64,000 nucleotides of DNA from Candidatus Woesearchaeota archaeon (GTDB taxonomy: Archaea; Nanobdellota; Nanobdellia; Woesearchaeales; GCA-2686295). Positions 6,691 to 46,079 of the stretch are shown one piece after another (the first letter of the stretch is position 1; the number at the start of each line of letters is the position of its first letter). Below the pieces are notes generated by a model. The model was not told the DNA's origin and searched no databases. It was given only the letters and a program-made list of their open reading frames with translations. A program made the position numbers and the translations under genes. Location of the stretch: assembly GCA_013202845.1 (NCBI GenBank), contig JABMPT010000010.1, forward strand, positions 59,876-123,875. Direction: 5' to 3'.

Positions 6691-7548
6691 ATGATTCCGG
6701 TCAACTATGCCTTTGCCTTCTTTGGATTGCTTTTCGCTTCTATATTTGACATCAAAACAAGAGAGATACCTGACTGGCTGAACTATTCATTGATTGGCTT
6801 TGGTTTCGGAACTTCGATAATCCTTTCAATAACAAACCTGAATTACTGGATATTTGTATATTCACTGCTAGGTTTTCTGGCTGGACTGATAATATCATTA
6901 GTTTTCTACTATACAGGGCAGTGGGGTGGAGGAGATGCAAAGATGATGATGGCTTTGGGAGCATTGATAGGACTGGACTTTCATTCTGGCTTCCCGATAT
7001 TTGTTGTGTTGTTGCTCAACATCTTCATAATAGGAGCAATTTATGGCGCTATATGGAGTGTTTTTTTAGCTTTGAAGCACAGAAAACAGTTCAAGAAGAG
7101 CTTTAAAGAAATAATTAGGGAGAAAAACATCTTAATTATAAGAAAGACTATTTTAATTATAGTGGTCTTATTGTTGTTATTCTTATTCATAACTCCCACA
7201 TCTATGAAGCCATTCATAATTGGAATAGCAGCGTTCATATTCTTTGCATTCTACTTCTATATATACAGCAAAGCAGTGGAGAAGTCAGCGATGGAAAAAT
7301 ACATCCCTTTGGAGAAGCTCACAGAAGGAGACTGGGTCCTGGAAACAATATATATCAATGGAAAAAAGATATACAGTCCAAGCAATGAGGGAATAGATAA
7401 GAAAGAGATAAAGAAATTATTAGAGCTGAAGAAACATCACAAGAAGTCAAAGATAAAGATCAAAGAAGGAATTCCGTTCCTGCCAAGCTTCTTCATAGCG
7501 TTTATTGTTACTTTATTATTGGGTAATTGGGTTTTATGGGTGATTTAA
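6691..7548 (+). CDS. A24-family aspartic prepilin/preflagellin peptidase (FlaK/PibD-like)
   Basis: Polytopic membrane protein. Conserved Asp motifs FDIKTREIPD and GGGDAKMM (the GGGDxK of A24 peptidases). Confidence 0.75.
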   Translation: MIPVNYAFAFFGLLFASIFDIKTREIPDWLNYSLIGFGFGTSIILSITNLNYWIFVYSLLGFLAGLIISLVFYYTGQWGGGDAKMMMALGALIGLDFHSGFPIFVVLLLNIFIIGAIYGAIWSVFLALKHRKQFKKSFKEIIREKNILIIRKTILIIVVLLLLFLFITPTSMKPFIIGIAAFIFFAFYFYIYSKAVEKSAMEKYIPLEKLTEGDWVLETIYINGKKIYSPSNEGIDKKEIKKLLELKKHHKKSKIKIKEGIPFLPSFFIAFIVTLLLGNWVLWVI

Positions 7549-7550
7549 TA

Positions 7551-8135
7551 ATGAATAAGATAGCAGTAGATATTGTGTTATTACCATCAGAAGAGATGAT
7601 GGACAAAGCAATAGAGATAAATAAAAAATTATTAAAGAATAACGAACCTAAGATTGTGTTAAATAAAGAAAATTGTCTTCCACACATGTCTCTTTGTATG
7701 GGTGTTATCGACGAGAAAGATGTTGAGCTAGTTGGAAAAGAATTAACAACGATAAGCAAAAGATTCTCTGCTTTTGATTTGTCTTTTAATGAGCTTTTTA
7801 CTTCTGATCTTGGTTTTACAGAACTATCATCTAATAAGCCTGATGATCTTCAATTACTCCATGAAACTATTACTGTTAAACTTGCAAAATTCATGACTTA
7901 TAATGCAACTAGCGACATGCTTTTGTTATCAGATGGAGAGGAGAGTTTTTCTGCTGGTTGGATTAGTGGTTATCATAATAATGCTAGTTTTGAAAATTTT
8001 AGTCCTCATGTGACTGTTGGATATGGTGTTCCAGTCGTTGATCTCCCAATCAATTTTACTGCTTCAAAACTTGCTATTTGTCATATAGGAAATTATTGCA
8101 CTTGTAGAAAACTCTTGTTTGAAAAAACTCTATAA
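7551..8135 (+). CDS. 2H phosphoesterase superfamily protein (LigT/ThpR-like), paralog 1
   Basis: Two H-x-[ST]-x motifs, PHMSLCMG and PHVTVGYG. N-terminal IAVDIVLLPSEE. The ORF track starts at a TTG inside the upstream gene; the ATG at 7551 directly follows the upstream stop. Confidence 0.7.
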   Translation: MNKIAVDIVLLPSEEMMDKAIEINKKLLKNNEPKIVLNKENCLPHMSLCMGVIDEKDVELVGKELTTISKRFSAFDLSFNELFTSDLGFTELSSNKPDDLQLLHETITVKLAKFMTYNATSDMLLLSDGEESFSAGWISGYHNNASFENFSPHVTVGYGVPVVDLPINFTASKLAICHIGNYCTCRKLLFEKTL

Positions 8136-8163
8136 GATAATTTGTTATTAATATTGATATAAA

Positions 8164-8766
8164 ATGGAAAAAATTGCTATTGATATCGCATTATTATTGC
8201 CTGAAGAAATTAATAATATTTGTATTAATATTAATAGAAGTAAAGGAGTTGAAGCTTTTTCCGACTTAAGTAAACATGATAATCACCCTCATATAACTCT
8301 TGCAATGGGAGTAATCGATGAAAACCAGATTGATATTGTTAATAACAAATTAGAAGAAATTACTAAGGATTTTTCAGGTTTTGATTTAGAAATAATTGAT
8401 ATTTTCAATGAAACCACTCCTGAAAATAAAACTTCAACAAGCTTTGTTATCAAACCAAATGCTGAACTAAAAGAATTACATGAAAAAATAATGAATGAAT
8501 TATTACCAATCTTCACTTATAATGTTTCAAAAGAAATGTTTTTCATTGATTCAGATGAAGATTATAAAGAAGTTTCTGAGTATTGGGTTGAAAACTATGG
8601 TACAAATCATAAATATCCTGAAAAGTACAGACCACATATTAGTTTAAAATGTAGACATGGAAAATATAATTCTTTTCCTGTTAAATTCTTCACAAATAAA
8701 CTGGTTATGTGTCAACTTGGTAATTATTGCACTTGTAGAAAAATTCTTTTCGAAGTAAATCTCTAA
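8164..8766 (+). CDS. 2H phosphoesterase superfamily protein, paralog 2 (tandem duplicate)
   Basis: HPHITLAMG and RPHISLKCR H-x-T/S-x motifs. Shares N-terminal IAIDIALLLPEE and C-terminal GNYCTCRKILFE with paralog 1. Confidence 0.7.
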   Translation: MEKIAIDIALLLPEEINNICININRSKGVEAFSDLSKHDNHPHITLAMGVIDENQIDIVNNKLEEITKDFSGFDLEIIDIFNETTPENKTSTSFVIKPNAELKELHEKIMNELLPIFTYNVSKEMFFIDSDEDYKEVSEYWVENYGTNHKYPEKYRPHISLKCRHGKYNSFPVKFFTNKLVMCQLGNYCTCRKILFEVNL

Positions 8767-9266
8767 GGTATCCTATCCAATTGTTTCAATAGATAATTCT
8801 CTTCCTCATCAGACATTGCATCTTCTTCTTTTTCTTTCTTGTCCATCTTTGGAGGATGTTCTGGTTTTTCCTCTTTAGCTTCTTCCTTTGGAACGATTAT
8901 CTTTCCAGAAATAGAACTTGTAGCTGCATCCAGATCAGCAGTTTGTAATTGTTTTGGCTTCCATTGAAAGTTCAAACCATCGTCCTGCATCCTTGCAATT
9001 ACTTCCATGTAGAACTCTTCACCTTCATAAGTTATGATATTAGTACCCTGAGCTCCTATTGTTTCAAAGAGCATGGTGGCTGCGTAACTTGCTAAGTAGA
9101 ATAGATGTTCTGAATGCTCTTCAGAAAGATCATCCATCATCTTGACTTCTTGTTTAGGAATTATGACTATATGCCCTTTTGCAGCGGGTTTCTCGACGAG
9201 AACAGCTGCAGCTATGTCATCCTCGTAGATTATCCTGTCTTTCTTCTCAAGCAGTTCTCTTTTCAT
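8763..9266 (-). CDS. HIT-fold protein with fully degenerate histidine triad and an acidic/Lys-rich C-terminal tail
   Basis: IIYEDDIAAAVLVEKPAAKGHIVIIPK matches the HIT N-terminal half. The triad position reads EFYMEVIAR, with no His. Tail KEEKPEHPPKMDKKEKEEDAMSDEEE. Confidence 0.5.
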   Translation of the reverse strand: MKRELLEKKDRIIYEDDIAAAVLVEKPAAKGHIVIIPKQEVKMMDDLSEEHSEHLFYLASYAATMLFETIGAQGTNIITYEGEEFYMEVIARMQDDGLNFQWKPKQLQTADLDAATSSISGKIIVPKEEAKEEKPEHPPKMDKKEKEEDAMSDEEENYLLKQLDRIP

Positions 9267-11614: not shown

Positions 11615-13294
11615 ATGAAAAGCTATTTTGAAGAGCTGATTGATTTCATAAAGAAAGAGAAACCAAACAAACAGAAACTCAACAACAAGAAGATAGAGCT
11701 CTGCTCCAAGCACAAAATAAAGAAGATACCTACAGATATAGAAGTATTGTGCAATGCAAAAGAAGAAGATATTGCAAACCTGAGTAAATTTCTCGTTACA
11801 AAACCTACAAGAACCATTAGCGGAGTTGCTGTAATTGCAGTTATGAGCGCTCCATTCAACTGTCCCCATGGCAGATGCACATATTGTCCTGGAGGCCTAA
11901 AAAGCCATTTCGGCAATGTTCCGCAGTCATATACTGGCAACGAGCCATCTACAATGAGGGGCATAAGAAATGAGTATGACTCTTACAGAATTGTTTTTAA
12001 CAGACTAGAGCAATACATTGTTCTTGGCCAGAATCCTGAAAAAGCAGAAGTTATTGTGATGGGAGGAACATTCCCAGCATTTAAGGAGGATTACAAGAAA
12101 GAGTTCATAAGGAACATATACAAGGCTTTAAACGACTTTTCAAAGCAATTCTATGTGAAAGGCAAGCTAGATATCAAACGCTTCAGAGACTTCTTTGAAT
12201 TACCTGGCAAAGTCAACGATAAACAAAGGCAGGAGAATATAAAGAAAAGAGTTTTGGACTTAAAGAACAAGAATATTAGAAGTTTTGACAAAGAAAAGAA
12301 ACTGAATGAGAAATCAGAGATAAGATGCATTGGATTGACAATCGAAACAAAGCCAGACTGGGGATTGTTGAAGCATGGCAATGAAATGCTAGATTATGGT
12401 TGCACAAGAGTCGAATTAGGCATACAAACAACTTATGACGATGTCTTGAGAGCAATCAACAGAGGCCATGGATTAAAAGAGTCAATAGAATCAATAAGGA
12501 CATTGAAGGATTTAGGCTTTAAGATCAATTATCATATGATGCCAGGGCTTCCAGGAGTCACAAAAGAGAAAGATTTAGAGTCTTTGAAAGAGATTTTTGA
12601 AAACTCTGATTTCAAGCCAGATATGCTAAAGATATATCCTACACTTGTAATGCCAGGAACACCTTTATATGCACAGTATAAGAAAGGCAAATACAAGCCG
12701 ATAACAACTGCCATAGCAGCAGATATAATTGTAGAAGCAAAGAAGTTCGTGCCAAAATATTGCAGAATAATGAGGATACAGAGAGACATCCCTACTAAAG
12801 TCACAGAAGCAGGCGTAGACAGAACAAATCTAAGGCAATATGTTGAGAAATTACAGAAAGAGAAAGGAGTTGTTTGCAACTGTATAAGATGTCGAGAAAT
12901 AAAAAGAAAAGAGATTAAAGGAAAGCCAAAACTTAAAGTTTTAGAATATGAAGCTTCTAAAGGAAAGGAATTCTTTATGTCATTTGTCGACGACAACGAC
13001 CGTTTGTTAGGTTTTTGCAGATTAAGGTTTCCATCCCAGAGCTTGAGAAAAGAAATAACCAATAACAGCGCTATAATTAGGGAATTACACGTCTATGGCA
13101 CTGCAATCGGCTTGAAAAAAGAAGGTAGAGTACAGCATATTGGTTTAGGTAAACAACTCGTCAAAAAAGCTGAAGAAATAGCAAAAAAGAATTCTAAAGA
13201 CAAAGTTGTGGTAATTAGCGGAGTTGGAGTCAAGGAATACTATAGAAAGCTTGGTTATTCTGATGATGGAGTTTATGTGAGTAAAGCGTTATAA
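11615..13294 (+). CDS. elp3: Elongator complex protein 3 homolog (radical SAM + GNAT; tRNA wobble uridine modification)
   Basis: GVAVIAVMSAPFNCPHGRCTYCPGG radical-SAM cluster region of Elp3. C-terminal GNAT with RELHVYG...GLGKQLV. Confidence 0.9.
   Translation: MKSYFEELIDFIKKEKPNKQKLNNKKIELCSKHKIKKIPTDIEVLCNAKEEDIANLSKFLVTKPTRTISGVAVIAVMSAPFNCPHGRCTYCPGGLKSHFGNVPQSYTGNEPSTMRGIRNEYDSYRIVFNRLEQYIVLGQNPEKAEVIVMGGTFPAFKEDYKKEFIRNIYKALNDFSKQFYVKGKLDIKRFRDFFELPGKVNDKQRQENIKKRVLDLKNKNIRSFDKEKKLNEKSEIRCIGLTIETKPDWGLLKHGNEMLDYGCTRVELGIQTTYDDVLRAINRGHGLKESIESIRTLKDLGFKINYHMMPGLPGVTKEKDLESLKEIFENSDFKPDMLKIYPTLVMPGTPLYAQYKKGKYKPITTAIAADIIVEAKKFVPKYCRIMRIQRDIPTKVTEAGVDRTNLRQYVEKLQKEKGVVCNCIRCREIKRKEIKGKPKLKVLEYEASKGKEFFMSFVDDNDRLLGFCRLRFPSQSLRKEITNNSAIIRELHVYGTAIGLKKEGRVQHIGLGKQLVKKAEEIAKKNSKDKVVVISGVGVKEYYRKLGYSDDGVYVSKAL
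13263..13294 (+). repeat. Direct repeat copy 1 (elp3 3' end)
   Basis: atgatggagtTtatgtgagtaaagcgttataa. Copy 2 is at 14126..14157 with one mismatch. Confidence 0.85.
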
Positions 13295-13317
13295 ATATCT
13301 TCTAATTCCAAATTCAT

Positions 13318-14100
13318 ATGTTACTTGAAGCACATCAAATTGTAAGAGAAAGAACAAAAGATTTAATCAGTAGATTTCAAAAAAGAGATGTTTCTTTGCA
13401 ACAATTTACTATAGAAGCAGATTTACAAGGTTCAGAGAAATCATTACAAAGAATATTAACTGCTGATTATGACCTAAGATTTGATGGAAGTCCTTTTCAA
13501 TCACATCCAATCTCAGCCGTTTATCTAGCAAGATGGTTGGCAGAAGGACTCAATGTGAAACATCTGGATAGGGATACCTTAGAACATGACCATTTTGAAG
13601 AAATTTATCAGAGAGGCGTCAAACTTGCATCTGCATTAAAACAATTCAAAAATGATGGAGGAGAAGTGGATTCAGCCATACTTACAGATGGAAATTCGCA
13701 CTATAATAATATAATAACTAAAAAAGTTCACAAGATTGTTCAAATAGAAAAACTAGGAACGCTGAAACATAAAATAGTAGCCCTTGCAGACGGACTTGAT
13801 AATAGCAGTGATATGAATTATGCTCCAGAGCATATTAGAGCCTTGAAATTGTGCAGATTTTTTTTATCTCCGCCCAAACTCGGGCTTGAAATATATACAG
13901 ATATTCCTGATGATATTAGAACAAAAACAGAATTTTTTATGAGTGAGATCATGCAACAAAATGGAGTAGATGAATCAATGCTAAACAGAGAATACGAGTA
14001 TTATCAAAAAACCTATCACAGTAAGAATAAAATTATCCAACAAAATGTTCAAAAGTATGGACAATTATTAGAACAAGTCTTTAACACTGTTTTGTCCTAA
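13318..14100 (+). CDS. Hypothetical protein, cargo of the repeat-flanked insertion at the elp3 3' end
   Basis: Clean 260-aa ORF with no recognised motif, bracketed by the 32-nt direct repeats. Confidence 0.45.
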   Translation: MLLEAHQIVRERTKDLISRFQKRDVSLQQFTIEADLQGSEKSLQRILTADYDLRFDGSPFQSHPISAVYLARWLAEGLNVKHLDRDTLEHDHFEEIYQRGVKLASALKQFKNDGGEVDSAILTDGNSHYNNIITKKVHKIVQIEKLGTLKHKIVALADGLDNSSDMNYAPEHIRALKLCRFFLSPPKLGLEIYTDIPDDIRTKTEFFMSEIMQQNGVDESMLNREYEYYQKTYHSKNKIIQQNVQKYGQLLEQVFNTVLS

Positions 14101-14125
14101 TTATTTCTTATCGACAACTACAGAA

Positions 14126-14157
14126 TGATGGAGTCTATGTGAGTAAAGCGTTATAAT
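14126..14157 (+). repeat. Direct repeat copy 2; would also encode the elp3 C-terminus NDGVYVSKAL*
   Basis: atgatggagtCtatgtgagtaaagcgttataa, with 31 of 32 identity to 13263..13294. Confidence 0.85.
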
Positions 14158-14220
14158 TTTCTCCTTTCGAGTAGTCAAAAAAGAAATGTTTATATAGTTA
14201 CTAAACACTCTCTGTGTCTT

Positions 14221-34532: not shown

Positions 34533-34648
34533 TGGGCCGGACGAGATTCGAACTCGCGACCACTTGATTGCTTTCACCTACTGAAAGTTCCAAAACTTCC
34601 AGTTTTGGTTAAAAGTCAAGTGCTCTTGCCAGGCTGAGCTACCGGCCC
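34533..34648 (-). tRNA. tRNA-Lys (anticodon TTT) with a roughly 40-nt canonical intron
   Basis: Acceptor GGGCCGG/CCGGCCC. D arm GCTC-AGCCTGGCAA-GAGC. Anticodon stem CTTGA/TCAAG with loop CTTTTAA. T arm GCGAG-TTCGAAT-CTCGT. Confidence 0.7.
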
Positions 34649-34676
34649 GATGGTTTATGCCCGTAAAGGAAATAAA

Positions 34677-34782
34677 CGCCCTGGCCGGGATTTGAACCCG
34701 GGTCGATGCCTCGACAGGGCATCATGATAGTTATCGCGCGAAACCATGTGATTATCAGCGTGCCGAACTACACTACCAGGGC
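34677..34782 (-). tRNA. tRNA-Asp (anticodon GTC) with a roughly 34-nt non-canonical intron in the 5' half
   Basis: Acceptor GCCCTGG/CCAGGGC+G. GTGTAG D-arm start. Anticodon hairpin ATGCC-CTGTCGA-GGCAT. T arm CCGGG-TTCAAAT-CCCGG. The extra 34 nt sit between the D-stem and the anticodon stem. Confidence 0.6.
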
Positions 34783-35007
34783 AATCTTTGATAAATAATA
34801 TAGCTAGGTCTATCTCCACTTGTGTTTTTGTTAGTGAAGAAAAACCATTTTGTTTGTTTGAGCTCGTCTTTACCTGGGTGTGTGTTGCTTGGAAACCGTA
34901 ATCCCTTTATAAACGTTACGGTTTACTATTGGAAATCATCATACTTTTTTGAGTTTAATTTTATTTTTAATAGAAATATTTATTTATGCATAGAAAAACA
35001 AGGTAAT

Positions 35008-38981: not shown

Positions 38982-40466
38982 TTATCTTCTGAAATTCCCT
39001 CTAGGGCCTTTTCTTCTATTGTCATATCTTCTTTTTGGACCATGAAATTTTCTTGGACCACTGTCATTTCTTTTTGGACTATCTGATCTCTTTGAACCGT
39101 CATCTCTTTTAGGACCATCATCAGTTCTTCTAGAACTATCATGTCTTTTTGGAGAATCTGTTCTTCTTTGACCATCATGTCTTCTTGGAGCATCTGATCT
39201 TCTTTGATTGTCATGTCTTCTTGGACCTTCATTATCTCTTCTAGGTCCCGATCCTCTTGGACGACCATCCCTTCTAGGGGCTGATCTTCTCCAAGTATTA
39301 GGTCTTCCTCGATTATTACTTCTTCCTCTGCTTTCCACTCTAACAGTTGTGGCTTGTTCCACGCGAGGAGTGTCCAAGTTTTCAATTTCAAAGTTTCTGT
39401 AATCCCTCTGAATTCTACCAAAATTATCATGATCTAAATCACATAAGATGTTGATAACCTTGCCTGATTCACCAGCTCTGGCAGTCCGGCCTATCCTGTG
39501 AACATAATCCTTCGAATCTTTTGGAATCTCATAATTGTATACATGAGAAACATTCTCTATATGAAGACCTCTTGCTGCAACATCTGTGCAAACCAAGACT
39601 TCTGCTTTCGCATCATTGAAAGACTTTAAAGTGCTTGTTCGCTTGTTCTGCGACAAACCTCCATGAATAGCAATTGCATTAACCTTGTTGGTTCTCAAAT
39701 TTTTAACAACAAAATCAGTTGTTCTTCTTGTATTGCAAAATACTAAAACCAAATCTGTGTCTTCTTCTCGAAGCAGATGCACAAGCACTGATATCTTCAT
39801 GTTTTTTGACACGTCGTAATATACTTGTTTTAGCTTGCTCGGATCAACATATTTATTGGTTAAGACTTCAATCGGATTATTCAAGTATCTATCAGCCAAT
39901 CTCTTAATCTCATATGAGATAGTGGCTGAGAAAAACATTGTCTGTCTTTGCTTCGGACATACACGAATGATTTTTTCAACATCATCTATGAATCCCATGT
40001 CAAGCATACGATCTGCTTCGTCCAGAACCAATATTTTAACTCTGGACAAATCAATGGTTCTCCTGTTAAGGTGATCCAATAATCTTCCTGGCGTCGCCAC
40101 AACTACTTCTGCATTTGTCAAATCATGAATCTGCGGGTTGATTGAAACACCACCGTAAACACTCATAATCCTAAGATGCTTGCCATGTGAAAGCTGTTTT
40201 ATGGACTCTTTTACCTGTTCAGCTAGTTCTCTTGTCGGAGAAAGCACTAAAGCCTGTACACCTTTTCCCGGTACAACTTTATCTACAATTCCGCTTCCAA
40301 AAGCAAGTGTTTTTCCAGAACCAGTTTCTGATTCTCCTATCACATCCCTACCTTTCATTATATGAGGAATTGATCTCTCTTGTATCTGTGTTGGTTTTGT
40401 AAAACCTAATCTCTCTATGACTTCAAATAGTTCCCTACTTAAGCCTAAATTTTCAAATAAATTCAT
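38982..40466 (-). CDS. DEAD-box ATP-dependent RNA helicase with an Arg/Asp-rich repetitive C-terminal tail
   Basis: Q-motif TKPTQIQ. Motifs GSGKT (I), VLDEADRMLDMGF (II), SAT (III), HRIGRTARAG (VI). Tail of repeated P[RK]R[HND]D..RR.D units. Confidence 0.9.
   Translation of the reverse strand: MNLFENLGLSRELFEVIERLGFTKPTQIQERSIPHIMKGRDVIGESETGSGKTLAFGSGIVDKVVPGKGVQALVLSPTRELAEQVKESIKQLSHGKHLRIMSVYGGVSINPQIHDLTNAEVVVATPGRLLDHLNRRTIDLSRVKILVLDEADRMLDMGFIDDVEKIIRVCPKQRQTMFFSATISYEIKRLADRYLNNPIEVLTNKYVDPSKLKQVYYDVSKNMKISVLVHLLREEDTDLVLVFCNTRRTTDFVVKNLRTNKVNAIAIHGGLSQNKRTSTLKSFNDAKAEVLVCTDVAARGLHIENVSHVYNYEIPKDSKDYVHRIGRTARAGESGKVINILCDLDHDNFGRIQRDYRNFEIENLDTPRVEQATTVRVESRGRSNNRGRPNTWRRSAPRRDGRPRGSGPRRDNEGPRRHDNQRRSDAPRRHDGQRRTDSPKRHDSSRRTDDGPKRDDGSKRSDSPKRNDSGPRKFHGPKRRYDNRRKGPRGNFRR
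38990..39330. repeat. Imperfect tandem coding repeats, period about 36 nt, about 7 units
   Basis: Repeated tcttcttggaccatc/tctttttggac... units. They encode PRRHDNQRRSDA/PRRHDGQRRTDS/PKRHDSSRRTDD... in the helicase tail. Confidence 0.7.
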
Positions 40467-40673: not shown

Positions 40674-41534
40674 ATGCTTGACCCAACACCGTCTATTCAG
40701 GAGTTACATCTTACTTTTGTTCTGTGGAAAAAGTTACTAGGGGAAAACAGCGGAAATTTTGATCACTATAACGATCAACTTGAAGAGTATGAAGATACAT
40801 TTTCTGAAGGAATTAATACACAGGTACAATTAGGTAGAATTCACGATGTAAGAACAGTTGGAGATTGCAAGACTTATGGAGATTCTTTCTTTCATAAACA
40901 TGAAGGTATTACTTATATCCGCGCTGGTTTGCCTTATCCAGATGAAGAAATGGATCCATATGAAGACTTGTTTAATGAATATTCACAAAAATTAAGAGTG
41001 ATGATCCTTGTGGATGGCGTTAATCCAACAGAACTTGTGAATAATCAATTACTAACAGCAAATAAACTAAGTCAAGCAACTCACACATTAATTAATGATA
41101 ATAATCCACAACAAGCTTTAGTTCAGTATAGAAAATTATCTCATTTAAGTGAACAACCCAGGAGCTTAAGTATTGAAAGAATTCTAAATGATAATTTTGC
41201 ACTCGAACAAGTTACTGGCTTAACAATCACACAAAAAGCAAGTGAAGACTCAAGCTATTATAGTAGGTTCCTAAAGAGATTTGACTTGAAATGGGTAGAT
41301 TTTATGGATGAAAACCAAGAAAAATATTTTAGAGTTTCAGAAATGCTCTGCGACGTGAATTATGACTCTAATTCTTGGAAACACAGTTATGATATGATCA
41401 GAAAAGAAATCACCTCTAAAGAAGATATAAATAACCCTCTTGTAGCAGCGTGCTTAATGCAAAACATAGTAAATGAAAGAAAAGCAATTTACACGAAAGA
41501 TGTAATTGCACTTCTAAACTCTACAGATTCTTAG
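40674..41534 (+). CDS. Hypothetical protein
   Basis: 286-aa ORF with a TATA-like element upstream (catataaatatt). Confidence 0.4.
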   Translation: MLDPTPSIQELHLTFVLWKKLLGENSGNFDHYNDQLEEYEDTFSEGINTQVQLGRIHDVRTVGDCKTYGDSFFHKHEGITYIRAGLPYPDEEMDPYEDLFNEYSQKLRVMILVDGVNPTELVNNQLLTANKLSQATHTLINDNNPQQALVQYRKLSHLSEQPRSLSIERILNDNFALEQVTGLTITQKASEDSSYYSRFLKRFDLKWVDFMDENQEKYFRVSEMLCDVNYDSNSWKHSYDMIRKEITSKEDINNPLVAACLMQNIVNERKAIYTKDVIALLNSTDS

Positions 41535-41542
41535 AATAAATA

Positions 41543-41612
41543 TCCCCCCGCCCGTGCTTGAAAGCGTTTGTCGTCGAGAAGATATTTTGATGAAATATTT
41601 TATGTACTAAAA
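41543..41612. repeat. Left repeat block of the tRNA-Tyr-associated cassette: tccccccgccc 11-mer, tcgtcgagaaga, atgtactaaaa
   Basis: Exact copies of all three segments recur at 42718..42768. The 11-mer equals the 3' acceptor end of the tRNA-Tyr gene. Confidence 0.75.
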
Positions 41613-41643
41613 GGTTCACACCCGCAGAAATCGAATACATAAA

Positions 41644-42624
41644 TTATTCAATACATTTTTTTATTAAATATTCAAAACATGTTTTAGTTGTGTCAAACAA
41701 TAAAACTCCTTCTGAAATATTGAAATGTTCTCTTTTATGAGACACACGATCAGAAGAAGTAGACCATAATGAAATAATTGTTGATTGAAAAAAGCCGAAT
41801 ATTTTTTCATCTATCAAGTGATTGTCTTTTAAATAAGATAGATTGGATTTAATTTTAGATTGAACTTCTACCTTGTCACATTTTCTTTTTGTAACTTCAT
41901 ATATAAATATTTCAACAGCAGACCTTAACTCATCCAAAGAATCCTTTACTTTTCCTTGTTTTAACTTAGTAAATCCCTCATTCAATATAGTATCTACTTT
42001 TTCAAATTCATACTCTTTTAGAAGATAGCTAATAGAACTTTCAAATTGTTCTTTAGTATAATCAACTAAAACATCAGGACTCTTAACTACAGAAGTATTT
42101 AAGGCTTTCATAAATTGAATTATGAATTCTTTATTTGTCTCTATTATTGAAGTATATTCAAACTCATCTATTGGTTTTTCAGAAATTTTTGCTGCTTTTT
42201 GATTCAATCTAAAGAAAAGAACTGGCTTAGTTCTTATCGTGATCATAATTCCAGGTTTGTCTTCATACTTGGAAAGAGATAAAAGAACATTTATTTCCCA
42301 AGGCCAATCAACTCTTGTTGATTTGAGTTTCTTAAAATACTCTGAATGAAATAGTTCATCTCTCTTAAGAAATCCATAGTCTAATTTGATATTTTGAAAT
42401 TTAGTTAGTTTAGGAAAAGATACATTGTGTATAAAAGTCATTGATAAGAATTTATCATGATATTCATCCGGAAGCAAAAAAGGAACAGCTCTAGTTTCAT
42501 TCACATAAGATAAATTAGAGAAATACTTGTCGATATTTCTTTTCAGACCCAATACCTCTTTTTCACTTACTTTCTCTAAACCTATAAAACAATCTCCTTC
42601 TATTATAAGATTTTGTGCTTTCAT
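41644..42624 (-). CDS. Hypothetical protein, cargo of the repeat-flanked cassette beside tRNA-Tyr
   Basis: 326-aa ORF, no recognised family. Bracketed by the repeat blocks. Confidence 0.45.
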   Translation of the reverse strand: MKAQNLIIEGDCFIGLEKVSEKEVLGLKRNIDKYFSNLSYVNETRAVPFLLPDEYHDKFLSMTFIHNVSFPKLTKFQNIKLDYGFLKRDELFHSEYFKKLKSTRVDWPWEINVLLSLSKYEDKPGIMITIRTKPVLFFRLNQKAAKISEKPIDEFEYTSIIETNKEFIIQFMKALNTSVVKSPDVLVDYTKEQFESSISYLLKEYEFEKVDTILNEGFTKLKQGKVKDSLDELRSAVEIFIYEVTKRKCDKVEVQSKIKSNLSYLKDNHLIDEKIFGFFQSTIISLWSTSSDRVSHKREHFNISEGVLLFDTTKTCFEYLIKKCIE

Positions 42625-42717
42625 TTCTATAGAGTAATAAAACTCTTCTTTTAAATATTTCCCAGAAACATGTACTAAATGGTTCAGTTCTGTACCGCAG
42701 AACGTTTTTTTAGTTTC

Positions 42718-42768
42718 TCGTCGAGAAGAATTGGGGGATATGTACTAAAATATAGAGTCCCCCCGCCC
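42718..42768. repeat. Right repeat block: tcgtcgagaaga, atgtactaaaa, and tccccccgccc (the tRNA-Tyr 3' end)
   Basis: Direct repeats of 41543..41612. Confidence 0.75.
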
Positions 42769-42948
42769 AGACTTTCATAACGGTCTCGCATGCTTGAGCA
42801 AAGCGAAACATGCCTCGTCGTCAATGGCCGAAACCGTTGTTTTGAACCGGGGACCTTTCGGTCTCGACTGGCTATATTTCATCCATACCCTATGGGTTAG
42901 TCATATAGCATCTACAGCCGAACGCTCTAGCCGCTGAGCTACGGGGGG
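42758..42948 (-). tRNA. tRNA-Tyr (anticodon GTA) with two introns: canonical after position 37/38 (about 49 nt), and one in the T-loop (about 69 nt)
   Basis: Acceptor CCCCCCG/CGGGGGG+A. D arm GCTC-AGCGGCTA-GAGC. Anticodon stem TTCGG/CCGAA with loop CTGTAGA. T-stem CCCGG/CTGGG with T-loop TTCAAAA interrupted by the second insert. Confidence 0.5.
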
Positions 42949-43043: not shown

Positions 43044-43625
43044 TTATTCTTCTAGATAGTTTAGATGAAACAGTGATTCTCTCGACACACGACTTAGCGT
43101 GTCTTGACATCTAATTGGCTTTTTTCTCCAGCTTTTTATAAGAACCATTTCTCTTTTCCTTATTCCAAGTTCATTCTCTGAAAACTTCTTTGCATCTATA
43201 GGAATAACAGTTTTTTTCATATTCTTCTCATAGGTTTCATCATCAGGTATTTCCATGTCAACTATCTTTCTGTCATCAAGTTTTGTCGTCGTCAAAAATT
43301 CATGATTTGCAATCTCTGTGTCCTGCACTTCTAAAGGATACTTTTCATTTAACGCAGCAAAGAAATCAAATGTTTGCTCTATGACTTTAGGCGGACTTAT
43401 AACTGAGAATCTTACATTGAAAGAATCAACTTTGTCTTCACTAGAAGGATAAACATGAGCTTCAGTTACACCTTTCCTTGATTTTAATTCATAAAAGCTT
43501 TGATTATAATTTTCATCACGGCTTCCAACAACTTTAAAGCCATATTTCTTAAGAAAATCATCTAACTCAGAATAATCAACTTTTTTCTTAAAACGAACTC
43601 TGAACAGATATGCCTCGATCCCCAC
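43044..43625 (-). CDS. Hypothetical protein
   Basis: 193-aa ORF, no motif. Confidence 0.35.
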   Translation of the reverse strand: MGIEAYLFRVRFKKKVDYSELDDFLKKYGFKVVGSRDENYNQSFYELKSRKGVTEAHVYPSSEDKVDSFNVRFSVISPPKVIEQTFDFFAALNEKYPLEVQDTEIANHEFLTTTKLDDRKIVDMEIPDDETYEKNMKKTVIPIDAKKFSENELGIRKREMVLIKSWRKKPIRCQDTLSRVSRESLFHLNYLEE

Positions 43626-43764: not shown

Positions 43765-45045
43765 GTGACTAACATGGAAGGGAACCGAGTCGTTATTACA
43801 GGAATGGGTTGTGTTACACCCATAGGAATTGGGATAGATCAATATAAAACCGCACTTGAAATGGGTGTTTCTGGAGCAGGACCTTTGACAAACGTGGAAG
43901 ACACAGAAGGTCTTAATGTTCTTATAGCATGTGAAGTAGATGGTTTTGATCCAAATGATTATATGAGTTTTAAAACTGCAAAGAGGACTGATCTTAGCAC
44001 TCAATTTAGTCTGGCTGCAATGAAAGAAGCAATAACAGATGCAGGACTGTCTCTTACAGAGGATGGTAATCTAGCTCTTGATGATAATAATCAAAGGGTT
44101 TCAATAATTATGGGCACTGGAATTGGTGGTTTTAAAACAACTCAGGAGCAAACAAGAATTCTGCTTAATAAAGGTCCAAGAAGGGTCAATCCCCTTGCCA
44201 TTCCTAAGCTAATGCCAAACGCAGTAGCCGCTTTGGGTTCTTTAGAATTTTTAATTCATGGAAACGCAAAAACTGTCAATAGTGCGTGCAGTTCAGCAAA
44301 TGATGCTATTGCAGATGCCTATGATAAACTTGTATTGGGAAGAGCTGATGTTACTATCTCCGGAGGATCAGACGCAGGCATATCAAAACTTACTATCGCA
44401 GCATTTGCTAATATGGGTGCACTTACTAAACAATACAATGACAATCCTACAATCGCATCAAGACCTTTTGATATGGATAGAAGCGGATTCGTCATAGGTG
44501 AAGGTTCAGGAGTTGTTGTCATGGAAAGACTTGAGTATGCGCAAGCTAGAGGTGCAAGGATTTACGCAGAGGTCTTGGGTTATGGAGCAACAAGCGATGC
44601 ATTTCATCTTACTGCACCTTCCAAAGATGGGTCTGGAGCTATAAGCGCAATGCAAATGGCGCTGGATATGGCAGGTTTAAGACCTGAACAAGTTGACTAC
44701 ATAAACGCTCATGGAACTTCTACTCCTTTAAATGACAAAATGGAAACAATAGCCATAAGAAAGGTTTTTGGAGCATATGCTGATAATCTCTTTGTGAGCT
44801 CAACCAAATCCATGGTTGGCCACTTGCTTGGAGCAGCTGGCGGAGCTGAACTAATAGCGACTGTTTTAGGTATGCAGCACGATACTGTTTATCCAACCAT
44901 TAATTATACTACACCAGATCCTGAATGTGACTTAAATTATGTGCCAAACAAAGCATTGAATCAAGTGACAAATGTCGCATTATCGAATTCTTTTGGCTTT
45001 GGCGGACATAATGTATGCCTTGCTGTTAAGAAATATGAAGGATGA
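43765..45045 (+). CDS. fabF: 3-oxoacyl-ACP synthase II-like beta-ketoacyl synthase
   Basis: NRVVITGMGCVTPIG N-terminus. Active-site Cys region NSACSSANDAIADA. Catalytic His AHGTSTPLND and GHLLGAAG. Confidence 0.85.
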   Translation: MTNMEGNRVVITGMGCVTPIGIGIDQYKTALEMGVSGAGPLTNVEDTEGLNVLIACEVDGFDPNDYMSFKTAKRTDLSTQFSLAAMKEAITDAGLSLTEDGNLALDDNNQRVSIIMGTGIGGFKTTQEQTRILLNKGPRRVNPLAIPKLMPNAVAALGSLEFLIHGNAKTVNSACSSANDAIADAYDKLVLGRADVTISGGSDAGISKLTIAAFANMGALTKQYNDNPTIASRPFDMDRSGFVIGEGSGVVVMERLEYAQARGARIYAEVLGYGATSDAFHLTAPSKDGSGAISAMQMALDMAGLRPEQVDYINAHGTSTPLNDKMETIAIRKVFGAYADNLFVSSTKSMVGHLLGAAGGAELIATVLGMQHDTVYPTINYTTPDPECDLNYVPNKALNQVTNVALSNSFGFGGHNVCLAVKKYEG

Positions 45046-45047
45046 AT

Positions 45048-46079
45048 TTATCTAGAAAACCTTGCCCTGTATAAGTTAGCTCCATAAGTGAACCCTGCTC
45101 CGAATGCAACATTAACAACAAGACTTCCTTCTTTAATTATCCCTCTTTCTTTTGCTTCTGCTGCAGCTAATGGCACTGATGCTGTAGAAGTGTTGCCGTA
45201 CCTTTCAAGATTGTGAAACACAACTCCTTTTAATCCTTCTTTTTCAAGTCCTTTCTTAGCAGCGTTCACAATTCTTATGTTAGCGCCATGCGGAAGCACT
45301 ACATCAACGTCTTCTAATGAATAACCAGTGCCTTCTAAAACATCCAAGACAGATTGCTTCATCACTCTTGCGGCAAATTTGAGAACTTTTCCTCCATCCA
45401 TAATTAGATAGTTCTTTTTTCTTTTCTCTGTCTGAAACTCTCCATTGTTTTTTGAAACTATTTGAAGCCCTTCTCTTTTCTCCGTGGTTAGATAACCATT
45501 TGGCCAGCCTTTACCTCCCATATCAGGCTCAGAACCCAAAACATTTTTTATCACTCCTTCCTCTTCAGATCTTTGGAGAAGATAAGCACCTGCACCGTCA
45601 CCGAACAATACACATGTATGTCTGTCTGCATAATCTGTGAATTTTGAAATTCTTTCAGCTCCAAGAACTAATAATTTATCAACAACACCCGCTATGATGT
45701 TATTGTATCCTGTTCTTATGGCACCTACCAAGCCAGTGCATGCTAGGATCTGGTCGTACGCAGGAATTCCTTTCCTTGCGCCTATGTCTCCAGCAATAAG
45801 CGCTGCATGAGCCGGGAATGTTCTATTTCCATCATGCACGTTTGTAGCAAGTATTATTTCATCAATTTCTTCTGGACTAAAAGGCACACGACTCATCAAA
45901 TCATACACTGCAAGGGTTCCCATCTCTCTAACTCCTTTGTCTAAAGAAATCCTTCTCTCTCTCATGCCAGTCCTGGAAAATATCCACTCATCACTTGTAT
46001 CTACAAGCTTTTCAAGGTCTGCATTTGTTAGAACAGTTTCAGGAATGTGAACTCCTGGTCCGTATATAGTTACTCCCAT
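45048..46079 (-). CDS. fabH: 3-oxoacyl-ACP synthase III-like (KAS III/FabH family) condensing enzyme
   Basis: Cys-His-Asn triad contexts ILACTGLVGA, LPHGANIRIV, YGNTSTASVPLA. Confidence 0.75.
   Translation of the reverse strand: MGVTIYGPGVHIPETVLTNADLEKLVDTSDEWIFSRTGMRERRISLDKGVREMGTLAVYDLMSRVPFSPEEIDEIILATNVHDGNRTFPAHAALIAGDIGARKGIPAYDQILACTGLVGAIRTGYNNIIAGVVDKLLVLGAERISKFTDYADRHTCVLFGDGAGAYLLQRSEEEGVIKNVLGSEPDMGGKGWPNGYLTTEKREGLQIVSKNNGEFQTEKRKKNYLIMDGGKVLKFAARVMKQSVLDVLEGTGYSLEDVDVVLPHGANIRIVNAAKKGLEKEGLKGVVFHNLERYGNTSTASVPLAAAEAKERGIIKEGSLVVNVAFGAGFTYGANLYRARFSR

Follow-up and report, generated by a model that had tools for sequence, protein, structure and literature searches.

A single-gene insert between copies of a tRNA 3' end beside a two-intron tRNA-Tyr gene of a woesearchaeal archaeon

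Duplication of a tRNA 3' end is the classical footprint of an integrative element, and integrases typically use the tRNA end at the discriminator base. Tyrosine-recombinase elements of the SSV and pNOB8 types comprise 5-40+ kb and encode an integrase of their own; their att sites are identical over about 40-60 bp. The att site of SSV1 has a length of 44 bp (as quoted in PMC3293823). In Caldiarchaeum subterraneum the two-intron gene for tRNA-Thr(GGU) lies beside a 1.8-kb insertion with a fragment of the same tRNA at its far end (Sugahara et al. 2012, PMC3293823). The authors read this locus as the result of an integration between attP and attB, a process that may deliver an intron as well (PMC3293823). 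At the Tycheposon-type tRNA islands of Prochlorococcus, older elements are displaced outward by serial integrations, partial tRNAs and degenerate remnants stay behind, and the cargo often consists of defence or niche genes (bioRxiv 10.1101/2020.12.28.424599). A survey of DPANN lineages, Woesearchaeota among them, has dealt with disrupted tRNA genes, which can escape standard predictors (PMC5829648). Toxin-antitoxin systems of the RnlA/LsoA type combine an N-terminal repeated domain and HEPN in one protein, and the cognate antitoxin gene lies next to it.

We analysed a stretch of 64,000 nt (the window) from the small-celled Candidatus Woesearchaeota archaeon (GCA_013202845.1, JABMPT010000010.1, positions 59,876 to 123,875), which represents 64 kb out of a contig of at least 138 kb. 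It harbors an insert of about 1.1-1.2 kb with one ORF immediately 3' of a tRNA-Tyr gene with two introns, and copies of the tRNA end are present on both sides. The other neighbour of the insert is an ORF of 286 aa, a singleton by word-index homolog search. As in Caldiarchaeum, a two-intron tRNA gene adjoins a small insert, and a tRNA fragment is found at the far end. The Caldiarchaeum insert, however, comprises a putative DNA recombinase, duplicates the 5' part of the tRNA and was seen to be polymorphic in the population, whereas here it is the 3' end that is duplicated, we found neither a recombinase nor a polymorphism, and the relative L005 has the T-loop intron but not the cassette. Compared to the SSV and pNOB8 types, the insert has only 1.1-1.2 kb, one HEPN gene and an exact core of 11 nt with degenerate extensions. 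Partial tRNAs and degenerate remnants at one tRNA together with defence-type cargo are reminiscent of Tycheposon-type islands, but Tycheposons are bacterial and have tyrosine recombinases and replication modules, while only repeats and one cargo gene are present here. We consider it somewhat probable that a tRNA-linked integration hot spot, with one horizontally acquired gene in it, extends from tRNA-Tyr to the 286-aa gene.

The tRNA-Tyr gene and its introns

The tRNA-Tyr gene is composed as follows.

42758..42948, minus strand: tRNA-Tyr(GTA) gene with two introns, 191 nt; mature tRNA 73 nt with a C1-G72 pair
42912..42948, minus strand: exon 1, positions 1-37
42863..42911, minus strand: intron 1, 49 nt, canonical position 37/38, relaxed BHB
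42841..42862, minus strand: exon 2, positions 38-59
42772..42840, minus strand: intron 2, 69 nt, T-loop position 59/60, near-canonical hBHBh' motif
42758..42771, minus strand: exon 3, positions 60-73

An earlier note on this DNA had proposed that the gene needs two introns, one in the anticodon loop and one of roughly 69 nt in the T-loop. Both are indeed required; the anticodon-loop intron has 49 nt and the T-loop intron exactly 69 nt, and the exons and positions are backed by relatives. The genomic, unspliced gene was matched neither by ARAGORN with or without intron mode nor by Rfam at gathering and permissive thresholds. ARAGORN called tRNA-Tyr(gta) only when both introns had been taken out manually and the 73-nt spliced sequence was used.

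The earlier note had advised a search for BHB motifs at both intron boundaries. For intron 2 the motif is near-canonical: the T-stem is followed by a 3-nt bulge (AGU), a 4-bp helix (UUCA:UGAA) and a second 3-nt bulge (AAA), beyond which one C-A mismatch precedes a 10-bp intron helix. The T-stem and the intron 2 helix are retained in the MFE fold, and cuts at the BHB result in the T-loop TTCAAAT. For intron 1 only a relaxed form was found. In a cloverleaf-compatible fold, as read from the sequence, its central helix has 3 bp (CUG:CAG) with bulges of 5 and 6 nt, and the predicted fold contains a competing 7-bp helix. The intron 1 stem covaries across four relatives, and both sides were changed in five pairs. 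Because of a GA repeat, the boundary of intron 1 may shift by one.

The exons are identical in the relatives L005, L008 and L011. L008 is without the T-loop intron; its T-loop TTCAAAT is the exact predicted splice product, and the mature sequence is identical. In L005 this site is occupied by a homologous but longer intron with a helix that is maintained through changes. A T-arm intron is absent from L008, located at 59/60 in the window and in L005, and at 53/54 in L011. A splicing endonuclease would remove the introns at the relaxed BHB of the anticodon loop and at the near-canonical BHB at 59/60; no EndA domain was detected among the ORFs screened in the window (64 kb of the contig of at least 138 kb). 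Multi-intron tRNA genes of DPANN and TACK archaea likewise combine a canonical 37/38 intron with a non-canonical T-loop intron with BHB. Nothing essential differs here, and the presence and position of introns vary among close relatives. We concluded that the two tRNA introns of this gene are ordinary for DPANN archaea.

Repeats flanking the insert

The following repeats and related segments surround the ORF of the insert.

42758..42768, plus strand: repeat A, TCCCCCCGCCC, the 3'-terminal 11 nt of the tRNA gene
41543..41553, plus strand: repeat A', TCCCCCCGCCC, exact distal copy of the tRNA 3' end
41571-41582 and 42718-42729: exact 12-mer of repeat B, TCGTCGAGAAGA
41566..41582, plus strand: repeat B, left copy, GTTTGTCGTCGAGAAGA, an imperfect form of the palindrome of the right copy
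42713..42729, plus strand: repeat B, right copy, GTTTCTCGTCGAGAAGA, with the palindrome TTCTCGaCGAGAA inside
41601-41612 and 42739-42750: exact 12-mer of repeat C, TATGTACTAAAA
42739..42750, plus strand: repeat C, right copy, TATGTACTAAAA, within the tRNA 3' trailer, 7 nt from the tRNA end
41601..41629, plus strand: repeat C+D, left copy, TATGTACTAAAAGGTTCACACCCGCAGAA, 14 nt past the ORF stop
42670..42702, plus strand: repeat C'+D', ATGTACTAAATGGTTCAGTTCTGTACCGCAGAA, 45 nt upstream of the ORF start; alternative insert boundary
41554..41590, plus strand: stretch beside A', collinear with deletions to the intron-2/T-loop part of the tRNA gene (42790-42845)

The three exact repeats (11, 12 and 12 nt) that the earlier note had described around the 326-aa ORF are all present where it had placed them. 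It did not include a fourth, gapped repeat (41602-41629 / 42670-42702). Repeat B can be extended to 17 nt with 16/17 identity (41566-41582 / 42713-42729). The identity of the 11-mer with the tRNA 3' end was also verified: it is the reverse complement of GGGCGGGGGGA, which comprises the final 3 nt of the T-stem together with the 3' acceptor strand and the discriminator A73. Its distal copy A' begins 8 nt past the stop codon of the 286-aa ORF, and degenerate similarity to the tRNA adjoins it. For the stretch 41554..41590 the gapped local score against the tRNA gene was 25, compared to 12.8 +/- 2.3 for shuffles (p about 0.001), and judging from this alignment the stretch is probably a decayed or diverged partial tRNA copy.

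Among 19,379 draws of window segment pairs with the same size and spacing, 0.8% had one 11-mer block in common and none had two, while three shared blocks were observed at the locus. The local alignment scores of the repeats were 30, 29 and 24 (shuffle mean 16.5 +/- 2.2). The possibility that the repeats belong to a widespread intergenic motif did not apply within the 64 kb: no further exact copy of A, B or C was found, and when one mismatch was allowed the sole extra match was one hit of the AT-rich 12-mer.

The order of the repeats is non-collinear, with A B C D / ORF / C' D' B C A on the plus strand. Read in the sense of the tRNA, the locus is arranged as tRNA-A / c b d' / c' ORF d / c b a' / host flank. 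The flanks align as an array of about four degenerate units of ~70 nt, each with a core similar to the tRNA 3' end (A/D), followed by B and the trailer motif C, and the cargo gene is located inside one unit. The interpretation of the duplicated tRNA 3' end as an integration footprint was sustained in part: the 11-mer duplication is real, but the flanks form a degenerate array and not a simple att pair. For this reason the boundary of the insert is ambiguous, and its span is 1215 bp by the A/A' repeats and 1068 bp by the CD/C'D' repeats. The trailer past the real tRNA weakly resembles that of L011, and the trailer past A' shows a weak resemblance to the L005 and L008 trailers, so that either side could be the native one. 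On the plus strand, D' folds into a hairpin of 6 bp with T7 behind it, and the C copy in the tRNA trailer adjoins the T-run of the trailer. All hairpins of the flanks are short, with 6 bp or less.

The cargo gene and comparable inserts

The insert contains one gene.

41644..42624, minus strand: cargo gene HQ533_04130, 326 aa, with an N-terminal alpha/beta domain and a C-terminal HEPN-fold domain

The ORF was found as described before, and it can now be placed, although no function had been assigned to it. It belongs to an unnamed, patchily distributed archaeal family (87 cluster representatives) with a HEPN-fold C-terminus, and restriction-modification, toxin-antitoxin and TIR genes are present in the defence-island neighbourhoods of the family. 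In a structure predicted from an alignment of 49 sequences, the alpha/beta domain covers about residues 1-185 and the helical domain, which has the four-helix HEPN fold, about residues 197-325. A single-sequence AlphaFold model was unusable (pLDDT 39). The word-index homolog search with the 326-aa protein retrieved only the protein itself; Pfam, NCBIfam, PADLOC and PHROG profiles gave nothing above noise. The GC content of the gene is 27.1%, the second-lowest among 51 ORFs.

Residue H296 is invariant, and R298 and R234 are each kept in 42/49 sequences. The HEPN motif R-x4-6-H is absent, with L/S/D at positions 290-292; the conserved arginines are R298 (H-x-R) and R234. In this H296-x-R298 arrangement with R234 the protein differs from known HEPN toxins and effectors (RnlA/LsoA, HEPN-MNT toxins, the C-terminal domain of AbiA, Csm6/Csx1), to which it also has no profile match. 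It further differs by an N-terminal domain with no significant Foldseek match in PDB and BFVD and by the lack of an adjacent antitoxin-like ORF in the window. Most likely the protein is a HEPN-type RNA-targeting toxin or abortive-infection effector. Since the catalytic motif is non-canonical (H-x-R, not R-x4-6-H), the activity is deduced only from the fold and the neighbourhood.

A second insert in the window had been compared to the present locus.

13263..14165, plus strand: elp3 cassette, a 41-nt direct repeat around one 260-aa ORF
13263-13303 / 14125-14165: direct repeats of the elp3 cassette, 90% identical, containing the last 32 nt of elp3
13318..14100: ORF of the elp3 cassette, 260 aa

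In its gross layout this cassette indeed matches the present locus, with a single ORF between direct repeats of the elp3 3' end. The earlier note had also called for a comparison of the two cargo proteins for a shared fold; the 326-aa and 260-aa proteins are unrelated (BLASTP E 0.29; hhalign probability 0.65%). One homolog of the 326-aa protein in another archaeon (L020) is encoded by a single-gene insert between direct repeats of ~50 nt. The three geometries are DR41-14 nt-ORF-24 nt-DR41 for elp3, DR~50-36 nt-ORF-1 nt-DR for L020 and C'D'-45 nt-ORF-14 nt-CD for the present locus, and no end motif is common to them. Both solitary homologs in housekeeping contexts are flanked by repeats and have a GC content below that of their neighbours, while flanking repeats were absent at five other homolog loci. 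The 7-mer TGTACTA occurs in the C motif and in the L020 repeat. It was rejected as a shared cassette motif, being too short and in opposite orientation relative to the gene. A 73-nt direct repeat (8067/8698) was rejected as a third cassette as well, since it represents the conserved C-terminus of tandem 2H-phosphoesterase paralogs that are 37% identical over their full length.

Origin of the insert

In agreement with the earlier note, no integrase or recombinase gene lies inside the insert, and no integrase or transposase domain was found in the screened window ORFs of at least 120 aa. Six more ORFs come with annotation precomputed on the same contigs, and short opposite-strand overlaps lie outside the screen. 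Pfam, PHROG, NCBIfam and PADLOC gave no recombinase hit to the cargo ORF. The following junctions are predicted for an empty site and for a circular form.

Empty-site junction at A: CTACAGATTCTTAGAATAAATA-TCCCCCCGCCC-AGACTTTCATAACGGTCTCGC
Circle junction at A: GGGGGATATGTACTAAAATATAGAG-TCCCCCCGCCC-GTGCTTGAAAGCGTTTGTCG
Empty-site junction at CD: 41590-41629 joined to 42703-42740
Circle junction at CD: 42640-42702 joined to 41630-41670

Contigs with identical flanking proteins all showed the same filled arrangement, two metagenome pattern scans for an empty site or junction gave nothing, and neither a circular junction nor a presence/absence polymorphism was found. The closest relatives, L005 and L008, have other genes downstream of tRNA-Tyr and are too diverged for an empty-site comparison. 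Short contigs ending at the repeats (L003, L004, L025, L026) were discarded as an indication of population heterogeneity, because the samples are fragmented throughout and the breaks occur beside C6/G6 runs. An integron gene cassette was rejected, since the flanks consist of direct repeats and short hairpins and no integrase is present in the window. An IS element, MITE or casposon was rejected for the lack of a transposase; the sole end-proximal inverted match (41537-41548 / 42733-42744, 11/12) does not surpass many internal chance pairs.

We slightly favor the view that the locus is a hot spot entered by Campbell-type recombination, which left a horizontally acquired gene of the defence type. 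The direct repeats, which include a perfect match to the terminal 11 nt of the tRNA, the degenerate flank units and the strongly deviant GC content argue for it. Circular DNA with a tRNA-Tyr-like attachment site would have recombined with the 3' end of the tRNA gene by means of a recombinase that acted in trans or was encoded on a portion deleted later, and repeated events or unequal crossing-over may have generated the array. The end product would be a decayed remnant or else a non-autonomous mini-element, and we give this a fair chance. The foreign composition of the cargo gene and the defence-island lifestyle of its family point to horizontal arrival. Several results speak against Campbell-type entry. 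Besides the missing recombinase domain, empty site, circular junction and polymorphism, the exact core has only 11 nt, which is short for archaeal att sites, and the five homolog loci lack flanking repeats. Furthermore, the decay of the inner A-like copies D and D', in contrast to a perfect outermost A', is at odds with a simple age order of serial integrations.

The earlier note had instead proposed a family of minimal mobile cassettes, and we regard active, integrase-less single-gene units of 0.9-1.2 kb as rather unlikely. Such units would have to circularise via their flanking direct repeats and re-insert at the same or similar targets, a sequence of steps that we take as tentative. As targets one might think of 3' ends of conserved genes, tRNA ends and promoters, used by host homologous recombination or by a recombinase encoded elsewhere, and B and C could conceivably act as arm-type protein-binding sites around the core A. 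This proposal is supported by the similar geometry of three independent single-ORF inserts, of which L020 is the one further example added here, and by the repeats and low GC content at both solitary homologs. When the insert is joined at A, the order C-B-C-[A]-B-C places arms on both sides of the core as in attP, and the palindromic B suits the binding of a protein dimer. On the other hand, the cargo proteins are unrelated, no end motif is common to the three cassettes, five family members are without flanking repeats, and no relatives of the family were found on phages or plasmids by tblastn or on viral contigs by a scan. No mechanism is known that would generate duplications of 30-50 nt at unrelated targets if the element itself has no matching attachment site. 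Since no excision, empty site, circular junction or polymorphism was found, the cassette family has to be treated as hypothetical. It appears doubtful to us that DPANN and other archaea harbor an unrecognised class of integrase-less single-gene mobile cassettes of ~0.9-1.2 kb; members of this class, should it exist, would have target direct repeats of 11-50 nt and defence-type cargo and would move through circular intermediates with a recombinase in trans or host recombination.

Local rearrangement without site-specific recombination appears improbable. Here, replication slippage or a template switch would have turned the tRNA trailer region into tandem units of ~70 nt by duplication, and the gene would have been copied in during the switch or by illegitimate recombination; the duplicated target sequence would be a by-product. 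The alignment of the flanks as tandem units and the mirror-like, non-collinear repeat order, which is not expected from a single att x att event, agree with this, as do the missing recombinase and the different lengths of the duplications at the unrelated targets of the three cassettes. However, the best-conserved repeat ends exactly at the discriminator base, a position typical of integrases, template switching leaves the retention of the exact GC-rich tRNA terminus unexplained, and the composition and lifestyle of the gene point to horizontal arrival. It is very improbable that the repeats are cis-elements of a resident gene, with B as operator, C as a promoter- or terminator-proximal motif, D' as hairpin with T-run and the 11-mer incidental: the palindrome in B, the hairpin and T7 of D' and the position of C beside the T-run of the trailer would suit such roles, but the left copies are situated between the ends of two convergent genes, a place that requires neither promoter nor operator, the motifs recur nowhere else in 64 kb, and an exact GC-rich match of 11 nt to the tRNA end is not plausibly incidental in a region of 30% GC.

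The analysis adds a tRNA-Tyr gene overlooked by standard predictors and an unnamed archaeal HEPN-fold family of 87 clusters, which is tied to restriction-modification and toxin-antitoxin loci and has a non-canonical H-x-R motif. The close relatives, in which the T-arm intron is absent or located at 59/60 or 53/54, offer material for work on how introns are gained and lost and on the proposed link of this process to integration sites. If the inserts are mobile, a minimal integration module of core and arm motifs would be defined that is open to experiment, and genome-reduced symbiotic archaea with few recognisable mobile elements could swap defence genes singly.

The tRNA-Tyr(GTA) gene and its introns

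Neither ARAGORN (default and intron mode) nor Rfam reported the unspliced tRNA at 42758-42948. After excision of 49 nt (42863-42911, intron 1) and 69 nt (42772-42840, the T-loop intron), ARAGORN called the 73-nt product tRNA-Tyr(GTA), and the spliced tRNA carried the C1-G72 pair expected in archaeal tRNA-Tyr. A near-canonical hBHBh' motif can be read in the T-loop intron sequence:

Elements of the T-loop intron motif
T-stem: CCCGG:CUGGG
First bulge: 3 nt, AGU
Central helix: 4 bp, UUCA:UGAA
Second bulge: 3 nt, AAA
Intron helix: 10 bp, preceded by one C-A mismatch

Cuts two bases into each bulge give the T-loop UUCAAAU and place the intron at position 59/60. In the MFE fold of the gene (z = -4.1) the intron helix persisted, as did the acceptor, D and T stems.

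A scan of the genome collection yielded eight related tRNA-Tyr genes. At locus L008 the exons are identical, the anticodon-loop intron is similar and the T-loop intron is absent; its T-loop, TTCAAAT, is exactly the predicted splice product. Locus L005 has a homologous, longer intron at 59/60, with the helix preserved despite base changes, and a third relative (L011) has an unrelated intron at position 53/54. The ARAGORN call only after removal of both introns, together with the L008 T-loop, supported the earlier note's view that this tRNA needs two introns.

Intron 1 lies at the canonical position, and its internal stem covaries in four relatives, where five pairs differ on both strands of the stem. 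A check for BHB motifs at both introns had been suggested; that of intron 1 is only a relaxed one (3-bp central helix, bulges of 5 and 6 nt) when the fold is compatible with the cloverleaf, and the anticodon stem has a competitor in a 7-bp helix, UCGGCUG:CAGUCGA, that is invariant. While its stem covaries, intron 1 of four relatives has the motif AUGGAUGAAAU, with one G-to-A change in L005, and ends in CAGUCGAG. The conserved motif and helix may serve in protein binding or folding.

Disrupted tRNA genes missed by predictors, and endonucleases of broadened specificity, are documented in DPANN archaea, in a survey that included a Woesearchaeota genome (PMC5829648). The two-intron tRNA-Tyr is therefore a known kind of feature. 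Introns in tRNA genes seem to be frequent in this genome: tRNA-Lys(TTT) at 34533-34648 has a 41-nt intron (found by ARAGORN with introns and by Rfam, missed by default ARAGORN), and for tRNA-Val(CAC) at 34676-34783, missed by default ARAGORN and Rfam, a 16-nt intron was reported after position 39.

Repeats bracketing the cargo ORF

The three exact repeats proposed around the 326-aa ORF (41644..42624, minus strand) held in coordinates and identity, and a fourth, gapped one was found by local alignment:

Repeats flanking the cargo ORF, all copies in direct orientation
41543-41553 (A') and 42758-42768 (A): TCCCCCCGCCC, exact
41566-41582 and 42713-42729: repeat B, 17-mer, 16/17 identity
41571-41582 and 42718-42729: 12-mer TCGTCGAGAAGA, core of B, exact
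41601-41612 and 42739-42750: repeat C, TATGTACTAAAA, exact
41602-41629 and 42670-42702: repeat CD, gapped

No further copy of A, the B 12-mer or C was present elsewhere in the 64-kb window; B contains the palindrome TTCTCGaCGAGAA. Among 19,379 window segment pairs matched in size and spacing, 0.8% shared one 11-mer block and none shared two, compared with three here, which is beyond chance in this sampling. Local alignment of the flanks gave scores of 30, 29 and 24 (shuffle mean 16.5 +/- 2.2).

Reverse-complemented, A reads GGGCGGGGGGA, which covers the final three bases of the T-stem, the 3' strand of the acceptor stem and A73 of the spliced tRNA, so that the 11-mer is indeed the tRNA-Tyr 3' end. 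The 37 nt beside A' (41554-41590) are collinear, with deletions, with the T-loop-intron part of the tRNA gene at 42790-42845 (score 25 vs 12.8 +/- 2.3, p about 0.001). Because of this alignment, the distal copy is probably a diverged partial tRNA 3' portion of more than 11 nt.

The plus-strand order is A' B C D - ORF - C' D' B C A. Since this order is mirror-like, one attL/attR pair cannot describe the locus. In-silico removal of 41630-42702 left 168 nt, two units of ~70 nt that align end to end (score 38 vs 10 +/- 4). D (CACCCGCAGAA) stands opposite A' in this alignment, which suggests that both D and D' derive from the tRNA end and have decayed. Along the tRNA strand the locus then runs tRNA-A / c b d' / c' ORF d / c b a' / flank, an array of att-like units with the gene inside one. 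The duplication of the tRNA 3' end was thus real for A/A', but the flanks resemble arrayed units rather than a single pair. Candidate insert limits are A/A' (1215 bp) or CD/C'D' (1068 bp), neither being favoured. An insert circularised at A would have C and B motifs on either side of the core, like attP arm sites.

The cargo gene, its neighbours and similar inserts

The ORF is identical to HQ533_04130 from a Candidatus Woesearchaeota MAG (138-kb contig). Pfam, PHROGs, PADLOC and NCBIfam gave no match, and a word-indexed protein search returned the protein itself only. Exhaustive phmmer searching found 87 cluster representatives, mostly full-length (300-335 aa), with named members in Woesearchaeota, Micrarchaeia and Promethearchaeota. 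Rather than being of unknown kind, the protein belongs to an archaeal HEPN-fold family with defence-gene neighbours. Conserved polar residues in 49 sequences are H296 (49/49), R298 (42/49, plus 6 Lys), R234 (42/49), E238 (39/49), D305 (41/49) and E314 (46/49). The canonical HEPN R-x4-6-H motif is absent from these conserved residues, and for this reason we can only infer RNase activity.

One homolog is embedded in a type I restriction-modification operon, with hsdS on one side and hsdR on the other, and others adjoin DpnII restriction-modification systems. Another adjoins a nucleotidyltransferase (NTP_transf_2) gene and an adjacent 130-aa ORF, which we read as an MNT/HEPN-like toxin-antitoxin pair, and one island includes an 878-aa TIR-domain beta-propeller (WD40-type) protein and an IS240 transposase. 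These neighbourhoods point to a defence role. No relatives were found on phage, plasmid or viral contigs. The cargo gene's GC content of 27.1% is the second lowest of 51 window ORFs (mean 36.2%, sd 3.5).

The single-gene, repeat-bounded layout recurs at two other loci. In another low-GC archaeon (L020), a 315-aa homolog (P0005) stands alone between Maf/LeuRS and transketolase genes. The direct repeat of ~50 nt on either side of it (7922-7971 / 8950-9000; 19 nt exact; alignment score 63) is apparently a duplication of the promoter region of transketolase; the 1028-bp insert has 24% GC, adjacent genes 29-33%. The elp3 cassette (13263-14165) was, as proposed, organised alike: a 41-nt direct repeat, 90% identical, that includes the last 32 nt and stop codon of elp3 surrounds one 260-aa ORF without a family match. 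Its downstream copy keeps the frame with one synonymous change, and the insert is 862 bp.

The 286-aa neighbour (40674-41534) matched only itself in a word-indexed search of 5.8 billion proteins, and neither it nor the 193-aa neighbour (43044-43625) matched the family libraries; therefore, the variable region may exceed the single cassette. L005 and L008, which have the most similar tRNA-Tyr, encode a small conserved protein directly downstream of it (L005 5085-5438, 117 aa; L008 2334-2756, 140 aa) with a D...ExK nuclease-like motif, absent at the window's corresponding position. Elsewhere in the window, two tandem 2H-phosphoesterase (2'-5' RNA ligase-like) paralogs (7527-8766), 37% identical, have in their 3' ends a common 73-nt DNA repeat, which encodes the conserved C-terminus GNYCTCRK; GC is the lowest in the window (26.4%) in the second copy. 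The C-terminal tail of a DEAD-box helicase (38982-40466) is long, rich in Arg/Ser/Asp/Pro/Gly and encoded by repeats with an 18-nt period (39029-39227). Genes of bacterial type (2439-5252 and 43765-46079) code for a protein of 937 aa that has a peptidoglycan transglycosylase domain (GT51) and for a pair of FabF/FabH-like ketoacyl synthases, adjacent and in opposite orientation.

Origin of the cassette

Mobility is supported by the exact duplication of the tRNA terminus, the foreign composition of the cargo gene, the patchy, defence-island distribution of its family, the independent L020 case and the elp3 cassette. The best-supported reading, which we somewhat favour, is a tRNA-linked integration hot spot with a HEPN-fold gene of defence type that arrived by horizontal transfer. 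The repeats would stem from Campbell-type recombination at the 3' end of the tRNA, the recombinase acting in trans or having since been lost, and repeated events or unequal crossing-over would have built the array. The locus is like island tRNAs, at which successive integrations leave partial-tRNA remnants (10.1101/2020.12.28.424599), and like Caldiarchaeum, in which an insert of 1.8 kb is flanked by a two-intron tRNA on one side and a tRNA fragment on the other (PMC3293823). Unlike in Caldiarchaeum, the T-loop intron is common to L005, which is without the cassette, and there was no sign that insertion delivered it.

Several results count against mobility. As proposed, no recombinase domain was detected in the insert or in screened window ORFs of at least 120 aa (six other ORFs being judged by precomputed same-contig annotation and short opposite-strand overlaps skipped). 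The 326-aa and 260-aa cargo proteins, for which a comparison of folds had been proposed, were unrelated. Every contig with an identical 326-aa, 286-aa, 193-aa or Elp3 protein showed the filled arrangement, and two metagenome scans gave no match. In L005, the nearest syntenic relative (response regulator 76%, histidine kinase 69% identical), the genes between kinase and tRNA-Tyr differ, so an empty site cannot be defined there. No second 11-mer copy occurred at any relative's tRNA-Tyr locus, and five other homolog loci had no flanking repeats.

An active class of integrase-less mini-cassettes is an unlikely alternative reading. Slippage or a template-switch rearrangement, without site-specific recombination, is somewhat less probable still as the source of the mirror-like array, given the exact tRNA terminus at its outer edges. 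That the repeats are functional cis-elements of the resident gene is very improbable.

Short contigs (L003, L004, L025, L026) from two low-coverage assemblies break at 41562/41577/41599 and 42750/42757, within a few bases of both C6-containing 11-mer copies and the C motif. As mobility evidence these ends were uninformative, the assemblies being fragmented throughout with breaks beside C6/G6 runs; they probably reflect coverage or homopolymers, though strain heterogeneity at the borders might contribute.

The earlier observation thus holds, and its interpretation does so in part: for the two-intron tRNA and the tRNA-end scar, but not for a single att duplication. An integration scar is a known kind of feature; unusual here are the minimal size, the lack of a recombinase, the arrayed non-collinear repeats and the layout recurring at two other loci. 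Demonstrated excision or re-insertion of such cassettes would raise the significance of the locus.
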